DNA from: a virus
UHGV virus genome: UHGV-0293664
Reading direction: 5' to 3' (one strand)
DNA length: 64,000 nucleotides
Part shown: positions 2,971 to 63,281 of the stretch, one piece after another
Numbering within the stretch: the stretch's first letter is position 1
Layout: every line of letters begins with the position of its first letter
Notes under the pieces: generated by a model
The model's database searches: none
Told to the model about the DNA's origin: nothing
What the model saw: the letters and a program-made list of their open reading frames with translations, nothing else
Program-made: the position numbers and the translations under genes

Positions 2971-4716
2971 ATGGCGCAAGACATGACAAGCTTTGAGCAG
3001 GCGGTAGATCAAGTAATTGTTGATTCTGAACGTTTGCACCTGATTGTCAACGGTAACGCTGTGGATGAAGTTGTCGTAGAGGATGGGACCACCATCCCTA
3101 CGGTACGAAAAGCCATGCTTGACACCCTTTATTTTAAAACGCCACCGATCCCTTGGGCGTATGGTGCATCCACAACAGTTTTTAACCAGCTGTACGAGTT
3201 TAAGGGGGACACAGGCCCTCAGTGGTGGTACGCTCCCGCAGCATCAAAATCTAACCCGGTTAGAATGCCAGCAGATCCTTCACAATCTCCAAACTGGAGA
3301 TTATATACAGATTCTGCAGTAATGGCAAAATACTACGCAAAACTTAACAGTCCGAGGTTCGAAGGTGACCCGCGAGTACCGACACCTCCAATGGACGACA
3401 AATCCGAGTCTATAGCAAACACAGAGTTTGTTGTTGACTACGTGGATAGCATATTTGAAGCCATGGAGGGGATGAAAGTTACTGTAGGGTCTTTGGTGGT
3501 AAAAGGTCTTACAGAACTTGCTAACACCATAGTTGGTGGCACACTCACCCTACATGGGCCTGTTAATGGAGCAGATTCTACTGCACGCTTCAGGAACCTA
3601 ATCCTCACGGCAAACACTTCTACACTTACTTTTGCGTGGAGCGATCCTAAGCATGCAGACTGGAGAAGTACAGAGCTGCAGCCTCATGAAGTGTCCACCC
3701 ACAGGATTATAGCTGACACTATAACTTCTGGGAAACCAGTGGCTAATAATAACGATGTGCATTTTGATGGTCTAGGTAATAACTTTTTTGACTACGTGTA
3801 CATTCGTGGTAATGCCATGAAGGCAGCAACCGAACCGACATTGCAGGTAGATGGAACCACCAGGGTTAAGAACCTTGAGGTGACAGGTACTGTTACAGGA
3901 ATAACCTACTCTGTCGATGGCACCATGATCTACCCTAGCTATATTGAAAGCACGGGGGACGCATTAATAAATGGTGATTTAGAAGTTGGCGGATCTGTAG
4001 TTATTCGAGGTACAGCCTCTATCCAAAACATAGCTCTGAATACCTTAAGAGTCAATGAGCGTGCAACTTTTGAAGGAGAAGGGCTTGCAGCCAATAAAGG
4101 TACAATTACCGAGCTGACCACCACCACTCTAACTGCAACAACTGCAAACTCTGAAAACTGCAACGTTACCAGAAACTTGCAGGTAAATGGGGATGTTAGT
4201 TTAAACGCAGCAGGTACTGGCACCACCTACCTGCACAACCTTGAAATATCCGGCACAGTGACTGGGTGGCTGCCAGACTTCTCTAATGTCAACTTTGTTT
4301 GTAATGGCATTAACTCTAGCGGTAAGATAACCACCTCTCAAGGAATTGAAGCTGGTAAAACCATTACTGCCCCTACTTTCCACGCAGGGAAGGTAGATTT
4401 TGATTTAGAGGAGGTTGACGCGTCCAGTGGGACATGGACACCTAACGGGCAGGCCAGTATGTATGTTGTCCACGCGAAAGGGGATTTTACAATAGGACAG
4501 TGGCCTGGGACATCAGCGGAAGATAAACCTTATCCATTCACTGCAGTTATCTATGTAATTCAGGATGCTGTAGGTCACAACGTGACTTTGCACGATAAGT
4601 ATGCCATCCTGTCGGCAACACCTGTTATTAACAACAAGGCTAACAGTGTTACCTTGCTGCAATTAACGTATTGTGGTGTTGGTGATATTGTAGACGTAGT
4701 AATTGCACAACGTTAA
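2971..4716 (+). CDS. tail fiber/tail spike-like structural protein
   Basis: 581-aa ORF; SD AAGGAG; Thr/Gly/Asn-rich repetitive beta-type sequence typical of fibers. Confidence 0.8.
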   Translation: MAQDMTSFEQAVDQVIVDSERLHLIVNGNAVDEVVVEDGTTIPTVRKAMLDTLYFKTPPIPWAYGASTTVFNQLYEFKGDTGPQWWYAPAASKSNPVRMPADPSQSPNWRLYTDSAVMAKYYAKLNSPRFEGDPRVPTPPMDDKSESIANTEFVVDYVDSIFEAMEGMKVTVGSLVVKGLTELANTIVGGTLTLHGPVNGADSTARFRNLILTANTSTLTFAWSDPKHADWRSTELQPHEVSTHRIIADTITSGKPVANNNDVHFDGLGNNFFDYVYIRGNAMKAATEPTLQVDGTTRVKNLEVTGTVTGITYSVDGTMIYPSYIESTGDALINGDLEVGGSVVIRGTASIQNIALNTLRVNERATFEGEGLAANKGTITELTTTTLTATTANSENCNVTRNLQVNGDVSLNAAGTGTTYLHNLEISGTVTGWLPDFSNVNFVCNGINSSGKITTSQGIEAGKTITAPTFHAGKVDFDLEEVDASSGTWTPNGQASMYVVHAKGDFTIGQWPGTSAEDKPYPFTAVIYVIQDAVGHNVTLHDKYAILSATPVINNKANSVTLLQLTYCGVGDIVDVVIAQR

Positions 4717-12911: not shown

Positions 12912-13478
12912 TTATTCAAACTGCAATAGTAAATCCACCACCGCGCTAGGTCTGTCAACAAATTCCCCTGGTCCACATGCCCATAAAGGGTATCCGTCTA
13001 CATACCGCCAAATCCAACCTGCAGTGTGGAGTTCGAGCAGGGCAGTACCGTCCTTACTGTCAACCACTCTTTCCCACAGTGTCGGGCAGCGAAGCTTGAG
13101 GATCGGATCCCCTCCCTTATACCCGTCCATGTAGATACCCATTGCAAAGTTCAGCATCATCTTTTTGTGCACCGATCTCTTACTGAGAGTGCTCATCACT
13201 TCCTCTTTGTGAATGTTTGTAAGCTTCTCCTTGGCTATCCGCAGATCGTTGCAACCATTGTTCAGCAAATCTTCTAGACACCTGATCCGAAGGTCGTGAA
13301 TGTCTTTGTCGTGTACCGTTGGCACAGGGTCGTAGCGGTATAGCACTGTTGATACAAGGTTGCTCGGGTGTGGGTCTGACAGCAACCCATAACCCCAATA
13401 CTCTTCTGTATCTGAAAGGACAAGACACCCAATGTCTCTGTCAAGCTTTCCTGTGTTGTAAGCCACATTGACCGCCAT
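12912..13478 (-). CDS. hypothetical protein
   Basis: 188-aa ORF in minus-strand operon. Confidence 0.7.
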   Translation of the reverse strand: MAVNVAYNTGKLDRDIGCLVLSDTEEYWGYGLLSDPHPSNLVSTVLYRYDPVPTVHDKDIHDLRIRCLEDLLNNGCNDLRIAKEKLTNIHKEEVMSTLSKRSVHKKMMLNFAMGIYMDGYKGGDPILKLRCPTLWERVVDSKDGTALLELHTAGWIWRYVDGYPLWACGPGEFVDRPSAVVDLLLQFE

Positions 13479-13480
13479 GA

Positions 13481-13726
13481 CTATAGCTCCACTAGCAAAG
13501 TGCTTTCAAAGTGCCGTTCATGCAGACCGTTGTAAGGGACCACCTCCACAACGCCATCACGAACATATGGGGTCATCATAGTGGTATAATCTCCAAACGG
13601 GTTGGTATTGTCACTAACCACAACCACCTTCTGCCCTTCCTTGGCAGAGTGCCAAATAGATCTGCACTTCATCAGGTGTTCGAGAGCTCCAGGTAAAATT
13701 TTGTTACGTTCTTTACGGGTCTTCAT
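13481..13726 (-). CDS. hypothetical protein
   Basis: 81 aa; tightly packed. Confidence 0.6.
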   Translation of the reverse strand: MKTRKERNKILPGALEHLMKCRSIWHSAKEGQKVVVVSDNTNPFGDYTTMMTPYVRDGVVEVVPYNGLHERHFESTLLVEL

Positions 13727-14172
13727 AACAGGTATAGCTCCTTATGAAAGTGATCTTTTAATTTCTCACTGAGAAACTTCTTGATACCTTCCTCTAAAGT
13801 GTTTTCGATGTAGTCCAGCTTAACTGCTTCGATAGACATATCATAGATCGCCAGCTCTAAGCTGTCAAGTCCCATCATAGCATGAACCATAAGATTTTCA
13901 TCTTCAGATACATTCAGGGGACTTCCTATAACATCTGGAGGCAGAATAGTTTCCCAATTATTCTGGGTGGTAGTTCTCCCCCCCTCTGCTTTACGGCGCA
14001 GTTCGAATGTGTTCTTAGTATAGAACACTTCATAAGAAACGATACGACTGTCGCTCTCATAATAAACGAAGTTCAGGTAGGAGCCTAGCCGCAGTCGGCA
14101 AACTTCCACCCCAAACCATTGTTTCTTATAAGAATTCAGGCTAATGCTGTCGCATTCACGTTTGCTCAACAC
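13723..14172 (-). CDS. hypothetical protein
   Basis: 149 aa; 4-nt overlap with downstream gene. Confidence 0.7.
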   Translation of the reverse strand: MLSKRECDSISLNSYKKQWFGVEVCRLRLGSYLNFVYYESDSRIVSYEVFYTKNTFELRRKAEGGRTTTQNNWETILPPDVIGSPLNVSEDENLMVHAMMGLDSLELAIYDMSIEAVKLDYIENTLEEGIKKFLSEKLKDHFHKELYLL

Positions 14173-14188
14173 GGCTCTCTCCTTTTTG

Positions 14189-14422
14189 TTAATCTTCGTA
14201 AATCAGGATTTCTGCTTTAGGTTTTCGTGCTTTCAGATCCAGCTCTATCCAATGCACCATGGCTGTTTCAAGAAAAACAGCCTGGATGCATCCGTCCTCA
14301 GCGTGCCCTACCAACATAACAAGATCTTCACCTTCGTCATCTGCATCACGAACATACAGAATCTCTCCAGATTCAAAGTCTTTCACAACCTGATTGCTGG
14401 ATAATTTACGAATTTTTGCCAT
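14189..14422 (-). CDS. hypothetical protein (distant member of the 87-aa paralog family)
   Basis: 77 aa; adjacent to three tandem paralogs. Confidence 0.65.
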   Translation of the reverse strand: MAKIRKLSSNQVVKDFESGEILYVRDADDEGEDLVMLVGHAEDGCIQAVFLETAMVHWIELDLKARKPKAEILIYED

Positions 14423-14423
14423 A

Positions 14424-14687
14424 TCAGAAACCCTCTAAAAAGCTCTTGTAGAAAACAATCTCAGTGTCCACACCAGTCACAATCTTGTCGTTCCTGATTT
14501 CATCGGTAAGATAGGTGTCAAAACGCAGAACCTGTGTGGTGTTGTCACACATCCACTCAGCTGTGACCATTGCGAAAATCTTAGCATCTTCATTATCCGG
14601 TGTAAATGTTACCACCTCACCGCATTTAAACTTTTCGATAGGTTGAGTGTTAGCTTTCGGCTCTGCGATAGTGATTTTTGTGGTCAT
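14424..14687 (-). CDS. small paralog family protein, copy 3
   Basis: 87 aa, 264 nt; shares CGxVV / FD...L pattern with copies 1 and 2. Confidence 0.7.
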   Translation of the reverse strand: MTTKITIAEPKANTQPIEKFKCGEVVTFTPDNEDAKIFAMVTAEWMCDNTTQVLRFDTYLTDEIRNDKIVTGVDTEIVFYKSFLEGF

Positions 14688-14950
14688 TATTCTCCTCCTT
14701 GTTTTGAATAGCTTGTCTCTCCAAGGATGGTAATTTTGGTATCAAGCTCTGTAACTTTCATGTTTGGTGGCAGATCGTACAACTCCTTATTTTCTAAATC
14801 GAACCCCCACACACAATGTTCTCCTGTTTTGACAATCATAACTATGTTTTGAATGCCGTCTCCGTCGCAACTTACCACGGTCCCACACGGAAAACTATCT
14901 GCACGCTTTTTGTTCTTCACCTTAGAATTGAATACAATGCTAGTAGCCAT
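14687..14950 (-). CDS. small paralog family protein, copy 2
   Basis: 87 aa, 264 nt; MAT...KKR...PGTVV...FDL...ILGE shared with copy 1. Confidence 0.7.
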   Translation of the reverse strand: MATSIVFNSKVKNKKRADSFPCGTVVSCDGDGIQNIVMIVKTGEHCVWGFDLENKELYDLPPNMKVTELDTKITILGETSYSKQGGE

Positions 14951-15213
14951 TATTGTTCCTCCACCATAACTTCGCCAAGAATTTCTATGCAGGCATCCAT
15001 TTCTGTAACAACCAAGGTGTGAGGTAGTTCTGCAAACACCTTTCTGAACAGGTCAAATACCCCAACATATATGTTTGCAGGATGTGATTTTACAACAAGT
15101 GCTGTATTCACATCCCCAAGTTCATCAACAAACATCACCACAGTGCCTGGAGCTACTGAAGACAGATACTTCTTAGTTTTACGGTTTGATGCAAATTTTA
15201 ACTCTGTTGCCAT
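14950..15213 (-). CDS. small paralog family protein, copy 1
   Basis: 87 aa, 264 nt; start/stop abut the next copy. Confidence 0.7.
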   Translation of the reverse strand: MATELKFASNRKTKKYLSSVAPGTVVMFVDELGDVNTALVVKSHPANIYVGVFDLFRKVFAELPHTLVVTEMDACIEILGEVMVEEQ

Positions 15214-15228
15214 AAATAATCTCCTCCT

Positions 15229-16710
15229 TTATTTAGCGTACTCGATTAATTCCACAGTTTTCCCAAAGCTCGGGATATAATTTTTATTATACCCCTCGGT
15301 GAGAACCCATAAAGTATCGTACTTTTTCCACTTGTTGTCAACAGCCTTTTGTTCAAAGTTATGCTCAAAGTATAGGTCGGTCAGGACGATGACATCTTTT
15401 GCATTCGGTATATTGGCATCCAGATACTCGAACACGCAAGCAGCTGTTGTGCCCCATGTTGAGTGGACCTCATAGTTGATCATCTCATCTATGTTACCGC
15501 GAGTGTATACTTTAACCTCTCCAACCTCAGTTGACCAACAGAACATTGTAACCTTAAACTCTTTATACAGATTGCACAATCCGGTGATTTCATTGAACAT
15601 TTTCTTTAAAGTTCTTTGAGAGATCGAGCCAGAAACGTCTAAAGCCACCACAATATCTATGGTGTTTTCCGGATTACGACCAGGAACAATAACGTGCTGG
15701 TTCTTGTTTATAGCCCCAACTTTTCGCATTGTGCTGGTCAAAGACCCAGATCGGCGACCAGGTTTTCTGTAGGTCAGTTCAGCCTTTCGTTTAGACAACA
15801 TGCGTTGCTTAATGATATCTATATAGTTGATTACAGGCTTGCCTCTGTTCTTGACAAACTCACGCACCGCCTCAGGGCAACGACCTCCGGAAGCTTGCAT
15901 TGCTGCCTCCAGCATGTCACCAGAATCCTGCATGGCCTGATCTTTATCAGATTGGCTGATTACAGGTTGTGGCCGATCATACCCCATAGCCTTCCCAAGA
16001 TCATCGCTGGTGCCACCGTTCCCGCTCATGTGATCATCGGTTTGTCGCTTATCTCCTTGGGAGTTATCACCTTTACCGCTCTTACTTTTACCGTTATTTT
16101 GATCTCTTTGCCTATCAAGAACTGCATAGACGTTCTCAGCAATCCATCCATGAAACTTCATGTCGCAGTAGCAGCTGGCTAAGAAACCAAAAGGCTTACC
16201 TTTTACGAACGTAGTGCTTTTCCCCTTCGGGAAGAAAACACAAGGGGGCTTGCTAAAGTCAACCACAAGACCTGTGTTGATAACGTGATCACAAGCAATA
16301 TTGAACAGTTCCGGCTCAAAGCTTTTGCCACGGACCAGGTGATCACAGATAATATGCCCCACCTCATGTGACAGAAGGAAAGCCACCTCTTTCACAGATT
16401 TGGGGGAATAGAAAACTTCAGCCATCTCAAACTGCTCTCCAGTTAGAGAGGCCTTGAGAATAGCCTTGCGTTCATCAGCCAACCCCATAATGAACTCAGG
16501 ACTGTAATAGATGCGTTTATGGTCGGTTGCCATGGTGGAGCACCATGTGTGGTTTTCTACGAACTGTAACCCTGACAGCAGTGTGCCATAAAACGGCAGC
16601 TTTTCAAGGAGATACATACGTGCAGCCTGTAACATTCTCAGGGCATCATCTTTCTGTGAGGCAATGATTTCTGAACTTCTGCTATCCATTAAAACTCCAG
16701 AAGGGGCCAT
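15229..16710 (-). CDS. vWA domain protein with N-terminal putative metallopeptidase-like domain (partner type of MoxR ATPases)
   Basis: 493 aa; HExxH-like HEVGHIICDH; MIDAS motif VVALDVSGSIS. Confidence 0.85.
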   Translation of the reverse strand: MAPSGVLMDSRSSEIIASQKDDALRMLQAARMYLLEKLPFYGTLLSGLQFVENHTWCSTMATDHKRIYYSPEFIMGLADERKAILKASLTGEQFEMAEVFYSPKSVKEVAFLLSHEVGHIICDHLVRGKSFEPELFNIACDHVINTGLVVDFSKPPCVFFPKGKSTTFVKGKPFGFLASCYCDMKFHGWIAENVYAVLDRQRDQNNGKSKSGKGDNSQGDKRQTDDHMSGNGGTSDDLGKAMGYDRPQPVISQSDKDQAMQDSGDMLEAAMQASGGRCPEAVREFVKNRGKPVINYIDIIKQRMLSKRKAELTYRKPGRRSGSLTSTMRKVGAINKNQHVIVPGRNPENTIDIVVALDVSGSISQRTLKKMFNEITGLCNLYKEFKVTMFCWSTEVGEVKVYTRGNIDEMINYEVHSTWGTTAACVFEYLDANIPNAKDVIVLTDLYFEHNFEQKAVDNKWKKYDTLWVLTEGYNKNYIPSFGKTVELIEYAK

Positions 16711-16722
16711 TGGCCCCTGTTA

Positions 16723-17712
16723 TTATTTAACGTGTTTGAAAATACCTGCCAACTCGGTCATTGTCATGCGGGTGGTCTTCATAAGATCTGTCATAGCTTT
16801 CTCCATAATTGGGGATACTACCATAAAGTTTCCTTTAGTGAAACCTTTATTCCAGTCGGTCACCAACAGTGGTTTAAGTCCAGCTCCGAGACGTTCACCA
16901 GTTAAAGCACAACATTTTCGAATGTATGTGCTCTTAAACTGGCTGAATGACAGATCCACTTTCATACCTGCATCGTAGAACGTCTGGCAATAGAAAGTGT
17001 AAGCTTTGGCAATCTCAACATCGTCAGGCAGTGCAGGAACCTCTTCTGTAAGCTCTTCTTCGACCCCTTGAGGCTCTTTTTCCTCTTCGTAAGCCTGTTG
17101 CGTCATCTCTTCAATCTCCTCTACTACAGGCTCGTTTACAATGTCAGAAATGTGCTTGTTGGCTCCACGATTAGCCATGAAGTTTTTAAAATCCTGCATT
17201 GGTGACATATCTTCCTCCCATTCTTCGTCAAAGAGTGCCAGTTTATCCTCTTCCGTTCCATATTGCAAGATGAAATCTTCAAAAGTGTAATCACCTTTCA
17301 ATTTCTCCATACGCTCTTCGCTCAGGTGGAGCATCATCTGCTGGACAATTTTTCGATCAGTTTTGTCTTTAATCAAGACTGCGGTCTTTTTATCTACCAG
17401 ACAGTCCTTTAGAGAGTTGCATCTCAACCCTACCACACAACAGTTATCAACCGCATAAGGGCCTTCATCATCTATCCGCTCTAGAGATGGGTAGAAAGGA
17501 TTTCCCAGTCCGTTTTCATCCGTGTGCATGTCGAAAGGTATAAGGGTATAGTCGCATACTCCATCTCCTAAAAGTTTTTTACCAAATAGGAGATATTCTT
17601 CCCATGACAGGTTGAACTCTATATCTCGTTTCCGTGCATTATTCTGTTTGCGTCTGTATTTTTTGAGCAAGCGCTCTAACTCTTCTGGTGTATAATATTT
17701 TTCAAGATTCAT
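16723..17712 (-). CDS. hypothetical acidic protein
   Basis: ORF track start at 17778 is TTG and overlaps a minus-strand promoter; ATG at 17712 (MNLEKYY...) lies downstream of that promoter. Confidence 0.7.
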   Translation of the reverse strand: MNLEKYYTPEELERLLKKYRRKQNNARKRDIEFNLSWEEYLLFGKKLLGDGVCDYTLIPFDMHTDENGLGNPFYPSLERIDDEGPYAVDNCCVVGLRCNSLKDCLVDKKTAVLIKDKTDRKIVQQMMLHLSEERMEKLKGDYTFEDFILQYGTEEDKLALFDEEWEEDMSPMQDFKNFMANRGANKHISDIVNEPVVEEIEEMTQQAYEEEKEPQGVEEELTEEVPALPDDVEIAKAYTFYCQTFYDAGMKVDLSFSQFKSTYIRKCCALTGERLGAGLKPLLVTDWNKGFTKGNFMVVSPIMEKAMTDLMKTTRMTMTELAGIFKHVK

Positions 17713-17743: not shown

Positions 17744-17772
17744 ATCTTACCAAGGGCCTGGGAAGATGTCAA
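17744..17772 (-). promoter_or_regulatory. sigma70-like promoter for minus-strand operon
   Basis: TTGACA-17 nt-TAAGAT on minus strand. Confidence 0.6.
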
Positions 17773-17785
17773 CCTCAAAAACGTG

Positions 17786-17814
17786 TTGACTTTACTCTAA
17801 ATCCTCGATATAGT
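17786..17814 (+). promoter_or_regulatory. sigma70-like promoter for plus-strand replication module
   Basis: TTGACT-17 nt-TATAGT, 40 nt upstream of ATG 17855. Confidence 0.65.
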
Positions 17815-36131: not shown

Positions 36132-36386
36132 ATGAAAATTACTTTGAAGCCAGAATGCGTTGCAAATGACCGAGCTTTTAAAGATTGCACAGTCGGTGCA
36201 ATTTATGAAGCGGAGTTTTGTGAGAACCCTCTGGTAAAAGCCCTTCTGGAAGAAGGGGCCCCTTTATCACAAGAAGAGATTGATGAGCTGGAAAACTCAG
36301 CACAGTGCCTTACCTTTAAAGATGACGAAGGAGATTCTGTCTGGTGCACTGTTAATGAAGTAGTTTTTGTAAAACCTGAACATTAA
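36132..36386 (+). CDS. small Cys-containing protein (paralog pair member)
   Basis: 84 aa; SD AAGGAGA; KPECVANDRAFKDCT...DDEGDSVWCT matches next gene. Confidence 0.75.
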   Translation: MKITLKPECVANDRAFKDCTVGAIYEAEFCENPLVKALLEEGAPLSQEEIDELENSAQCLTFKDDEGDSVWCTVNEVVFVKPEH

Positions 36387-36389
36387 TAC

Positions 36390-36418
36390 TTGACAACAGT
36401 GATGGGGCCTAATATAAT
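36390..36418 (+). promoter_or_regulatory. consensus sigma70 promoter
   Basis: TTGACA-17 nt-TATAAT; -10 sits in loop of GGGCC/GGCCC inverted repeat. Confidence 0.65.
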
Positions 36419-36449
36419 GGCCCTATCGAAACGAAAGGGGACCACAGCA

Positions 36450-36710
36450 ATGACCAAACAATATCAACGAATTAAAGCCAAGGTTAAGCCAGACTATCTG
36501 GAAAAGGACTCTGCTTTTCGGGACTGCACAGCCGACAAAGTTTACACAGGGGCTGTCCTGTTGAACGATAAACTTGAAGTAGATGTGCTGGGTAAAGAGG
36601 CCGTTATCGAGGATGACAACGGTGACTGTGTTTTCTGCACCACACGGGAGCTAGAAGTCTTAGAATACTTCGGTGAAATCTTCAACTCCTTAGACGACGA
36701 GGAAGCGTGA
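36450..36710 (+). CDS. small Cys-containing protein (paralog pair member)
   Basis: ATG 36450 downstream of promoter; KPDYLEKDSAFRDCT...DDNGDCVFCT. Confidence 0.7.
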   Translation: MTKQYQRIKAKVKPDYLEKDSAFRDCTADKVYTGAVLLNDKLEVDVLGKEAVIEDDNGDCVFCTTRELEVLEYFGEIFNSLDDEEA

Positions 36711-60191: not shown

Positions 60192-60587
60192 TTACTGAAA
60201 CAGTGCAGATAAATTACCTTCTGGTGGGAACTTATCTGCCAGGAATGGGGTTAGAACAGTGGCCTTCTGAAGATCAGGGGTCCACTCATTGTTCAGAACA
60301 TCCCAGTAGTACGCAATGTTGCTGTGTGGGTGCCGCATTACGAACTTTTTCCCTTCGTAGTCGGTTGAAACCTCTACAGAAGAAATAACAACAGAATCTT
60401 CGAGGGTTTCTTCATAGAAAGATCCGCCCTCAAATTTCCAACGAGATGCAAGAGCTCCTGCCTTGAACGCTGCAGATAACGGACTATCTGCAAGAACATA
60501 CATTTCTTGCACTCTATCACTGCGATCTTTGCTTCTTACGTTGTATACAGTATCCGAGCTATACTCAACACGGTATAGACTTACCAT
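60192..60587 (-). CDS. hypothetical protein, family C
   Basis: 131 aa; RHPHSNIAYYWD...WTPD paralogous to 62396-62794. Confidence 0.75.
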   Translation of the reverse strand: MVSLYRVEYSSDTVYNVRSKDRSDRVQEMYVLADSPLSAAFKAGALASRWKFEGGSFYEETLEDSVVISSVEVSTDYEGKKFVMRHPHSNIAYYWDVLNNEWTPDLQKATVLTPFLADKFPPEGNLSALFQ

Positions 60588-62395: not shown

Positions 62396-62794
62396 TCAGT
62401 TTAGCTTTTCTTCAACAACCCCATAGCTCGGGGCAGAGTCAAGAGCTTTTTGGTTTAAAAGTGGTGTAGCAGAATCTGCAAACGGTGTCCAAGTTTTTGT
62501 TCTGGCATTCCAATAATGTTTCACTCTGGAATCTGGATGCACTATAACAAAAACTTTTTCACTTGTCAACACATTAATTTCTTCCACACCCCTGCTGATA
62601 ATTTCTCCGTCATAGCCACCAGTCTGGTATCCTTCGTACCAGGTTCTTGCATAGGCATAGCCAGCCTGCCAGCATGCAGCCTCTTCAGAGGTGGAGACTA
62701 CGTAGAAGTCTTTCTCAAATTCTGGGATACGCCCTTGCTTTACGCTCCAAGCTCCGCGAATTTTCATTGTAACTTTGAACAGTTTATTTTTCAC
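62396..62794 (-). CDS. hypothetical protein, family C
   Basis: 132 aa; VHPDSRVKHYWNARTKTWTPF. Confidence 0.75.
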   Translation of the reverse strand: MKNKLFKVTMKIRGAWSVKQGRIPEFEKDFYVVSTSEEAACWQAGYAYARTWYEGYQTGGYDGEIISRGVEEINVLTSEKVFVIVHPDSRVKHYWNARTKTWTPFADSATPLLNQKALDSAPSYGVVEEKLN

Positions 62795-62806: not shown

Positions 62807-63064
62807 TCACAGCTCTAAAATATCTGCATCTGATCCTACCCCAAAGGCATAATACGATTCCTCTCCGAAATAATATTCTGGGGCACCAGCCGCAATCAGG
62901 TCTGATCCTAAGATGAACACCACATTGTGGCCTACATATCCGCGAAAATTTTGCCGCACAGGATCATCCCACGGCAACCCTTCAAAGTATACAGCAGGTA
63001 CGACCTTTCCTTTCAGGAAGGATTGTCCCAAGTAGACGTTAGAGTCAAGAATTTTAACCTTCAT
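62807..63064 (-). CDS. small protein, family A
   Basis: 85 aa; MKVKILDSNVYLGQ...GSDLIAAGAPE. Confidence 0.75.
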   Translation of the reverse strand: MKVKILDSNVYLGQSFLKGKVVPAVYFEGLPWDDPVRQNFRGYVGHNVVFILGSDLIAAGAPEYYFGEESYYAFGVGSDADILEL

Positions 63065-63281
63065 GATCGTCCTCCACTATCTCCACATCCTCCCCTAGGG
63101 CAAAGTTGTAGGTCCACTGACTGTCAAAGCATTCCTGGGATGCACCAGCGGCAATAAGATCTGCACCTTTTATTTTTAAAAGGTCAGGATAATCTTCGTT
63201 AGGGATAGCGGTAAACACTTTCCCCACTAAGGGCTCCTGACCAATATAGAAGCTTGAATCTAAAACTTTAACTTTCATCAA
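63054..63281 (-). CDS. small protein, family A
   Basis: 75 aa; MMKVKVLDSSFYIGQ...GADLIAAGASQE. Confidence 0.7.
   Translation of the reverse strand: MMKVKVLDSSFYIGQEPLVGKVFTAIPNEDYPDLLKIKGADLIAAGASQECFDSQWTYNFALGEDVEIVEDDHEG

Follow-up and report, generated by a model that had tools for sequence, protein, structure and literature searches.

Virulent phages, including those with T4-like and T7-like early regions, carry accessory-gene slots in which cassettes are exchanged between conserved flanks. The locus described here, from an rV5-like coliphage, resembles these slots in its conserved flanks, its sharp breakpoints at gene boundaries, its mutually exclusive alleles and the apparent movement of its cassettes between diverged lineages. 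Unlike in those slots, the alternative cassettes are paralogs of each other and also of a conserved neighbouring gene. Tandem small orphan paralogs are common in phage accessory regions, and the finding as a whole ranks as ordinary to mildly interesting.

In rV5 itself, genes 11-26 are transcribed as a single unit from bidirectional sigma-70 promoters, and gene 11, the first of the unit, encodes an Srd-like sigma decoy, an anti-sigma factor (PMC3606486). The genes with which we are concerned correspond to rV5 ORF14, ORF15 and ORF16, which match three protein families of the PHROGs collection (phrog_10698, phrog_12861 and phrog_12046, respectively) over their full length with E-values of 1e-41 to 1e-62. 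Their products, gp14-16, are absent from the virion proteins named in the text of the rV5 genome paper and were not found mentioned in a search of its supplement; the paper gives no individual mention of these genes, and the words ‘paralog’ and ‘duplicat’ do not occur in its text (PMC3606486). What is already known of the genes is thus their deposition as hypothetical proteins, the annotation they carry in more than 100 deposited Vequintavirus genomes, and their grouping in PHROGs.

The window is the whole stretch of DNA that was analysed, 64,000 nucleotides of the virus genome UHGV-0293664. It belongs to the genus Vequintavirus and is about 97% identical at the nucleotide level to the phages APECc02 and Murica, and its region 13400-16800 shares 97-98% nucleotide identity with more than 100 Vequintavirus genomes, which are those of rV5-like myoviruses of E. 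coli, APECc02, Murica and the BASEL phages among them. Within this region lie four small genes, called A to D in the order in which they are read, together with a slot that holds either A and B or a single alternative gene, called type E. The features are as follows.

15229..16710, minus strand: DUF2201 metallopeptidase and VWA-like protein, 493 aa, at the upstream edge of the small-gene block
15221..15228, minus strand: Shine-Dalgarno sequence of gene A, AGGAGGAG, directly after the metallopeptidase stop codon, as read from the sequence
14950..15213, minus strand: gene A, 87 aa, pI 5.0, phrog_10698 type A, a predicted seven-strand small beta-barrel
14687..14950, minus strand: gene B, 87 aa, phrog_10698 type B, its start codon sharing one base with the stop codon of A (TAATG)
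14688..15213, minus strand: swap slot, holding A and B or a single type E gene (85-86 aa, rV5 ORF14), defined by tblastn and nucleotide identity
14424..14687, minus strand: gene C, 87 aa, pI 4.5, phrog_12861, remote paralog of A, B and E
14189..14422, minus strand: gene D, 77 aa, pI 4.6, phrog_12046, conserved and travelling with C
13723..14172, minus strand: downstream boundary gene, 149 aa, phrog_6790, at the other edge of the small-gene block

We read these genes as a genus-specific block of coupled small genes, an explanation to which, with description and mechanism taken together, a probability of about 0.5 can be given. The descriptive part, in which A and B are duplicates, C is their remote kin, D goes with C, the genes form two modules and all are under purifying selection, is very probably right. 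New in this account are the link between C and the A/B/E family and the recognition of a two-state slot with exact breakpoints, as well as the independent transfer of A-B and C-D modules and the unusually strong constraint on C.

The four genes are tightly packed. The one-base overlaps of the form TAATG fall at 14950 between A and B and at 14687 between B and C, the gap between C and D is a single base, and gene A begins 16 bases after the metallopeptidase stop. Shine-Dalgarno sequences precede each of A, B, C and D. Promoter-like matches in the interior of the block are weak (9/12 positions) and there is no terminator-like site within it; promoter-like sites that match the promoters of the rV5 unit are found in the window at 17744-17814. 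The coordinates, the 87 codons of each of A, B and C and the overlapping stops and starts had been put forward from the letters of this stretch, in what is called here the sequence-only reading, and all are correct, although the equal length of the three genes, true as it is, is partly coincidence, with other family members having 83, 85 and 88 residues.

This arrangement bears on the suggestion that A to D might not be functional genes at all, but chance open reading frames or the decaying remnants of a duplication, as the tiny size of the proteins, their orphan status and their want of a known domain could be taken to imply. The presence of Shine-Dalgarno sites and the coupling of starts to stops speak against this, as do the persistence of intact genes in 118 genomes, dN/dS values far below 1 at high dS and the confident compact fold predicted for A, such that the suggestion can hardly be credited.

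The relationships among the four proteins differ greatly in depth. A and B align in BLASTP with 39% identity across 87 residues (E 9e-14), and their Smith-Waterman comparison gives a z-score of 20.7, with 0 of 1000 shuffles reaching the observed score, so that their resemblance goes well beyond what length and composition produce. Both match phrog_10698 from end to end (A with E 2.8e-42, residues 1-87 on profile positions 1-87; B with E 2.2e-41), and they are clear paralogs, the product of an ancient tandem duplication. C is a different case, as BLASTP returns no alignment of C with either A or B, the Smith-Waterman z-score of C against B is 4.5 and the match of C to phrog_10698 has an E-value of only 0.078. 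When, however, a family profile constructed from A, B and their relatives was searched against all 485 open reading frames of 40 or more residues that the window contains, C came third of the 485, directly after B and A, with an E-value of 4.5e-5 and a colinear alignment (1-76 to 1-78). Profile-profile comparison with hhalign likewise places C with the A/B/E family at a probability of 89.5% (E 1.9e-6) over 80 columns, 1-82 on 1-84. Whereas PHROGs keeps C apart from A and B, the profile comparison joins them, and C is best regarded as a remote, much older member of the family.

The sequence-only reading had taken A, B and C for three paralogs with a shared motif, MAT...KKR...PGTVV...FDL...ILGE. 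For A and B the kinship holds far beyond chance and the motif is indeed common to both; for C the kinship is remote, visible by profile and null by BLASTP, and the protein reads MTT...CGEVV...RFD...VTGVD in place of the motif. The further proposal of D as a diverged fourth member is not borne out by comparison with the A/B/E family, as neither the HMM E-value of 0.43 nor the hhalign probability of 2.4% (E 0.019) is significant. The 81-aa gene at 13481-13726 was considered as a fifth member and rejected, having Smith-Waterman z-scores of no more than 2.7 and belonging to a different PHROG.

Outside the genus the proteins are rare. The A/B/E family comprises 23 clusters among 5.8 billion proteins, almost all of them from contigs of Vequintavirus size, and, in an exhaustive profile search, three real clusters among 1.84 billion representatives, and the distribution of C and D is as narrow. 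Word-indexed and exhaustive protein searches found no distant relatives; three long repetitive proteins returned by the exhaustive search were set aside as spurious repeat matches. Searches of Pfam with A to D yielded sub-threshold noise only, sequence searches of the PDB with three profiles gave no match with an E-value below 0.4, and no sequence or structural match to A to D was found among characterised phage anti-defence or host-takeover proteins in Pfam and the PDB. On this evidence A, B and E form a family of orphans, the members of which are acidic and 83-88 residues long.

The structural model of A is a confident compact fold of seven strands, read as a small SH3-like beta-barrel, the best fold matches of which, by superposition, include ribosomal protein uL2, Tudor, PWWP and KOW domains and RimP. 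In a library of viral structures its neighbours are uncharacterised small phage proteins only, and A is thus predicted to be a small SH3-like beta-barrel without a specific structural relative. Identity between A and small SH3-like barrels, such as Tudor and KOW domains, the uL2 barrel and the C-terminal domains of LexA and lambda CI, is just 5-22%, and the likeness is one of a very common fold that implies neither membership nor function. The AlphaFold model of D, of modest confidence (pLDDT 66), consists of a short helix followed by five strands. The structural neighbours of D and A overlap partly; the A or E family is not among the top 50 found in a structure search with the D model, and all of these neighbours are uncharacterised. 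The two proteins would, if the models are right, share a broad fold class only. Structure prediction, which had been proposed as a check on the relatedness of the four genes, therefore suggests an SH3-like barrel for A and a low-confidence helix with five strands for D that is not linked to it.

These folds invite the view that A to D are nucleic-acid binders of the SH3-like, Sm, KOW or Tudor kind, modulating early transcription or translation of the host or of the phage. The fold matches of A to uL2, Tudor, PWWP, KOW and RimP agree with it, as do the basic residues near the N-terminus of A, B and E, at about positions 9-16, the Sm-like order of helix and five strands in the D model and the Srd-like sigma decoy with which the operon begins. 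However, all of the proteins are acidic overall (pI 4.5-5.3, net charge -2 to -8), they have no sequence match to such families in Pfam or the PDB, and the D model is of low confidence. The acidic pI argues against simple nucleic-acid binding, without naming a target, and the view is held to be quite improbable.

The upstream half of the block is a slot with two states. When the proteins of A, of B and of rV5 ORF14 (type E, 85 aa) were used as tblastn queries against 118 Vequintavirus records, A and B were found together in 44/118 and E alone in the other 74/118, with no record among the 118 showing a mixture of A or B with E, or A without B. Compared with rV5, the window keeps a nucleotide identity of 93-100% as far as the ATG of A, drops to background level throughout the slot and regains its identity from the ATG of C onward, which puts the breakpoints of the slot exactly at gene boundaries. 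The comparison of copy number among related phages that had been suggested thus gives two copies (A and B) in one set of genomes and one (E) in the other.

E is 40% and 42% identical to A and B, respectively. Diverged counterparts exist for all three types. Diverged pairs occur in two further, uncultivated lineages, of which L005 carries A', which is 57% identical to A, and B', which is 62% identical to B, and a type E variant, E2, occurs alone and in an unrelated context in another lineage (L008). A neighbour-joining tree groups A with A', B with B' and E with E2. From the first two of these groupings it follows that the A/B duplication predates the split of the lineages, and E is a third ancient type. 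The notion that E arose as a recombinant chimera of A and B was rejected, since E lies at much the same distance from each of them and is paired with a diverged relative of its own, E2.

Comparison with more distant lineages indicates that the two halves of the block move separately. In one lineage (L014) the A-B block is 92-100% identical to the window in nucleotides, with dS of 0.19-0.27, and is embedded in flanks of about 70% nucleotide identity, the proteins of which are 42-79% identical to those of the window and saturated in synonymous divergence. Near-identical genes amid such diverged flanks point to recent transfer of the pair as a unit. The reverse is seen in L005, where C, D and the start of the next gene are 90-95% identical in nucleotides and A'B' about 65%. 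A-B and C-D are therefore regarded as modules that have been exchanged independently between diverged lineages. C can also be found by itself, as a further phage lineage (L016) carries a lone C homolog that is 81% identical. Two adjacent 142-aa genes (3080-3508 and 3558-3986) precede this homolog in L016 and are possibly another tandem pair.

Pairwise dN/dS is 0.19 for A, 0.04-0.12 for B, 0.00-0.013 for C and 0.02-0.05 for D, values that place all four genes under purifying selection. C is the extreme case, with a protein that is 95-99% identical across lineages at dS of 0.6-3.8 and dN of 0.005-0.03, a combination that argues for constraint at the protein level. The synonymous sites of C vary freely, and it is therefore the protein that is constrained, rather than some element that overlaps the gene. 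Recombinational spread could partly account for the conservation of C. For an orphan, C is unusually constrained, neighbouring proteins in the same lineages being 42-79% identical.

Such figures are central to the idea of an anti-defence arms race, in which every one of the small proteins would block some bacterial immune system, with the paralogs diversifying to keep pace with variation in the host. Genes that are accessory and genus-specific, a polymorphic slot with cassettes moved horizontally between diverged lineages, and small, acidic and probably early proteins are all what this idea leads one to expect. Against this, selection is purifying and not diversifying (pairwise dN/dS 0.01-0.19), C and D rank with the best conserved genes around them, as arms-race genes typically do not, the proteins have no similarity to any characterised protein and there are just 3-4 discrete A/B/E types in 15 billion proteins. 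An arms race of this form is consequently unlikely. The sequence-only reading had described tandem arrays of this type as commonly encoding diversifying host-interaction or anti-defence proteins. The dN/dS values of the four genes, with C at about 0.01, do not support the diversifying part, and the anti-defence part finds no supporting evidence and no match to characterised proteins. Variation in the block instead consists of a few deep, discrete types swapped by recombination, and not of rapid sequence change.

The flanks of the block help to define its limits. The upstream gene at 15229-16710 matches Pfam DUF2201_N (E 4e-28) and DUF2201 (E 3.5e-11) and is kept throughout the Vequintavirinae and further afield. 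It has received the labels ‘HNH endonuclease’, ‘anti-sigma factor’ and ‘anti-termination’ in deposited records, and the original record of rV5 has it as two separate frames, ORF12 and ORF13. The downstream gene at 13723-14172 is annotated as ‘tail protein’ (phrog_6790) or ‘holin’ depending on the record, with no evident support. In Seunavirus SSE121, Mydovirus BIS47 and the unclassified phage TH18 the metallopeptidase gene is followed directly by a homolog of 13723-14172 (by BLASTP, SSE121 gp113 with E 9e-14, TH18 peg1 with E 6e-11 and BIS47_215 with E 5e-6), and in the sister genera this homolog overlaps the metallopeptidase stop codon. HMM searches detected no relatives of A, C or D near the metallopeptidase gene in SSE121, BIS47, TH18 or Certrevirus CR8, and the small genes that adjoin the metallopeptidase in these four phages, considered as candidates, proved unrelated. 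As the sister genera are without them, A to D represent a genus-specific insertion of 1 kb. That the genes are accessory, as had been supposed, is well borne out by this absence, by the two exclusive states of the slot and by their place in a sigma-70 unit after an Srd-like gene. The sister genera also have a conserved gene of 85-87 aa (MYEHILGRPAT...; L010 2692-2955, L011 2678-2935 and L012 2697-2957) between the Srd-like and metallopeptidase genes, which is similar in size to A to C and unrelated to them by HMM.

Proximity to the metallopeptidase raises the question of whether A to D could serve the DUF2201 metallopeptidase/VWA protein, and possibly a nearby MoxR-like ATPase, as accessory subunits, as regulators or as substrates. 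The start of gene A 16 bases behind the enzyme gene in the same operon would suit such a partnership, as would the DUF2201 metallopeptidase gene that lies about 2 kb downstream of the lone C homolog in L016 and the ATPase gene found nearby in Murica and CR8. However, Seunavirus, Mydovirus, TH18 and many other phages have the enzyme and none of A to D, and the sequences that carry E2 (1.7-2.7 kb) show no such neighbour. Moreover, C stays at 95-98% amino acid identity where the metallopeptidase falls to 79-82%, and therefore the two do not co-evolve. A partnership with the enzyme is very unlikely.

This leaves the preferred reading, a genus-specific block of coupled small genes, with its mechanism to be described. 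Gene layout and promoter predictions suggest early expression of A to D, as part of the sigma-70 unit headed by the Srd-like gene, and the genes would be dispensable to the core lytic cycle. They may act as small binding modules against host macromolecules, with C binding an invariant target and the A+B or E slot serving a target or partner that can be dealt with in more than one way, the alternatives persisting side by side among the phages. As A and B co-occur, move jointly and are translationally coupled, and as E is solitary, it is plausible that an A-B heterodimer is the equivalent of an E homodimer. This mechanism, of early and dispensable small binding modules with an A-B heterodimer standing in for an E homodimer, is a tentative one. 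A more specific version is speculative and a good deal less probable. In it, A+B and E would be forms of one dimeric effector, the heterodimer having arisen from a homodimer by duplication, and would persist as a long-lived polymorphism because the two forms suit different hosts, and C would inhibit or hijack an invariant, probably essential E. coli protein. If true, the block would make up a small natural collection of related binders, each aimed at a target of its own.

Literature searches brought up neither functional nor transcript data on A to D, and no transcriptome study of a Vequintavirus is evident from the titles and abstracts of the search hits. The phage EdH4, which carries A and B, was used in the CRISPRi-ART paper for knock-downs of capsid and rII only. 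Collections for E. coli phage therapy and biocontrol make wide use of rV5-like phages, the early genes of which are for the most part unexplained. The block offers a natural experiment, in which exclusive A+B or E cassettes occur in genomes that are otherwise 97% identical, beside the constrained gene C. This makes C a good candidate small inhibitor, directed at some conserved target in the host, and the A+B/E slot a testable candidate determinant of host-strain specificity.

Small-gene tandem duplication recurs in this genome. At least two further adjacent pairs of small paralogs are present, at 36132-36386 and 36390-36710 on the plus strand (30% identity, E 2e-6) and at 62807-63064 and 63054-63281 on the minus strand (39% identity, E 1e-13). 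Non-adjacent paralogs are also present, at 80-625 and 1640-2683 on the plus strand (44% identity over 185 aa, E 2e-44) and at 62396-62794 and 60192-60587 on the minus strand (28% identity, E 8e-7).

Among the deposited relatives of the region are 16 GenBank records of the MG0656xx series that are titled ‘Campylobacter phage’, 15 of them with C. jejuni as host. They are 90-99% identical in nucleotides to window positions 13400-16800 and show the same A+B or E haplotypes, and their host label or sample purity looks doubtful. Upstream of the block, a perfect GC-rich palindrome, AGGGGCC ATT GGCCCCT, lies at 16702-16718 between the Srd-like and metallopeptidase genes. It is a terminator according to the Murica annotation and may attenuate read-through into the small-gene block.
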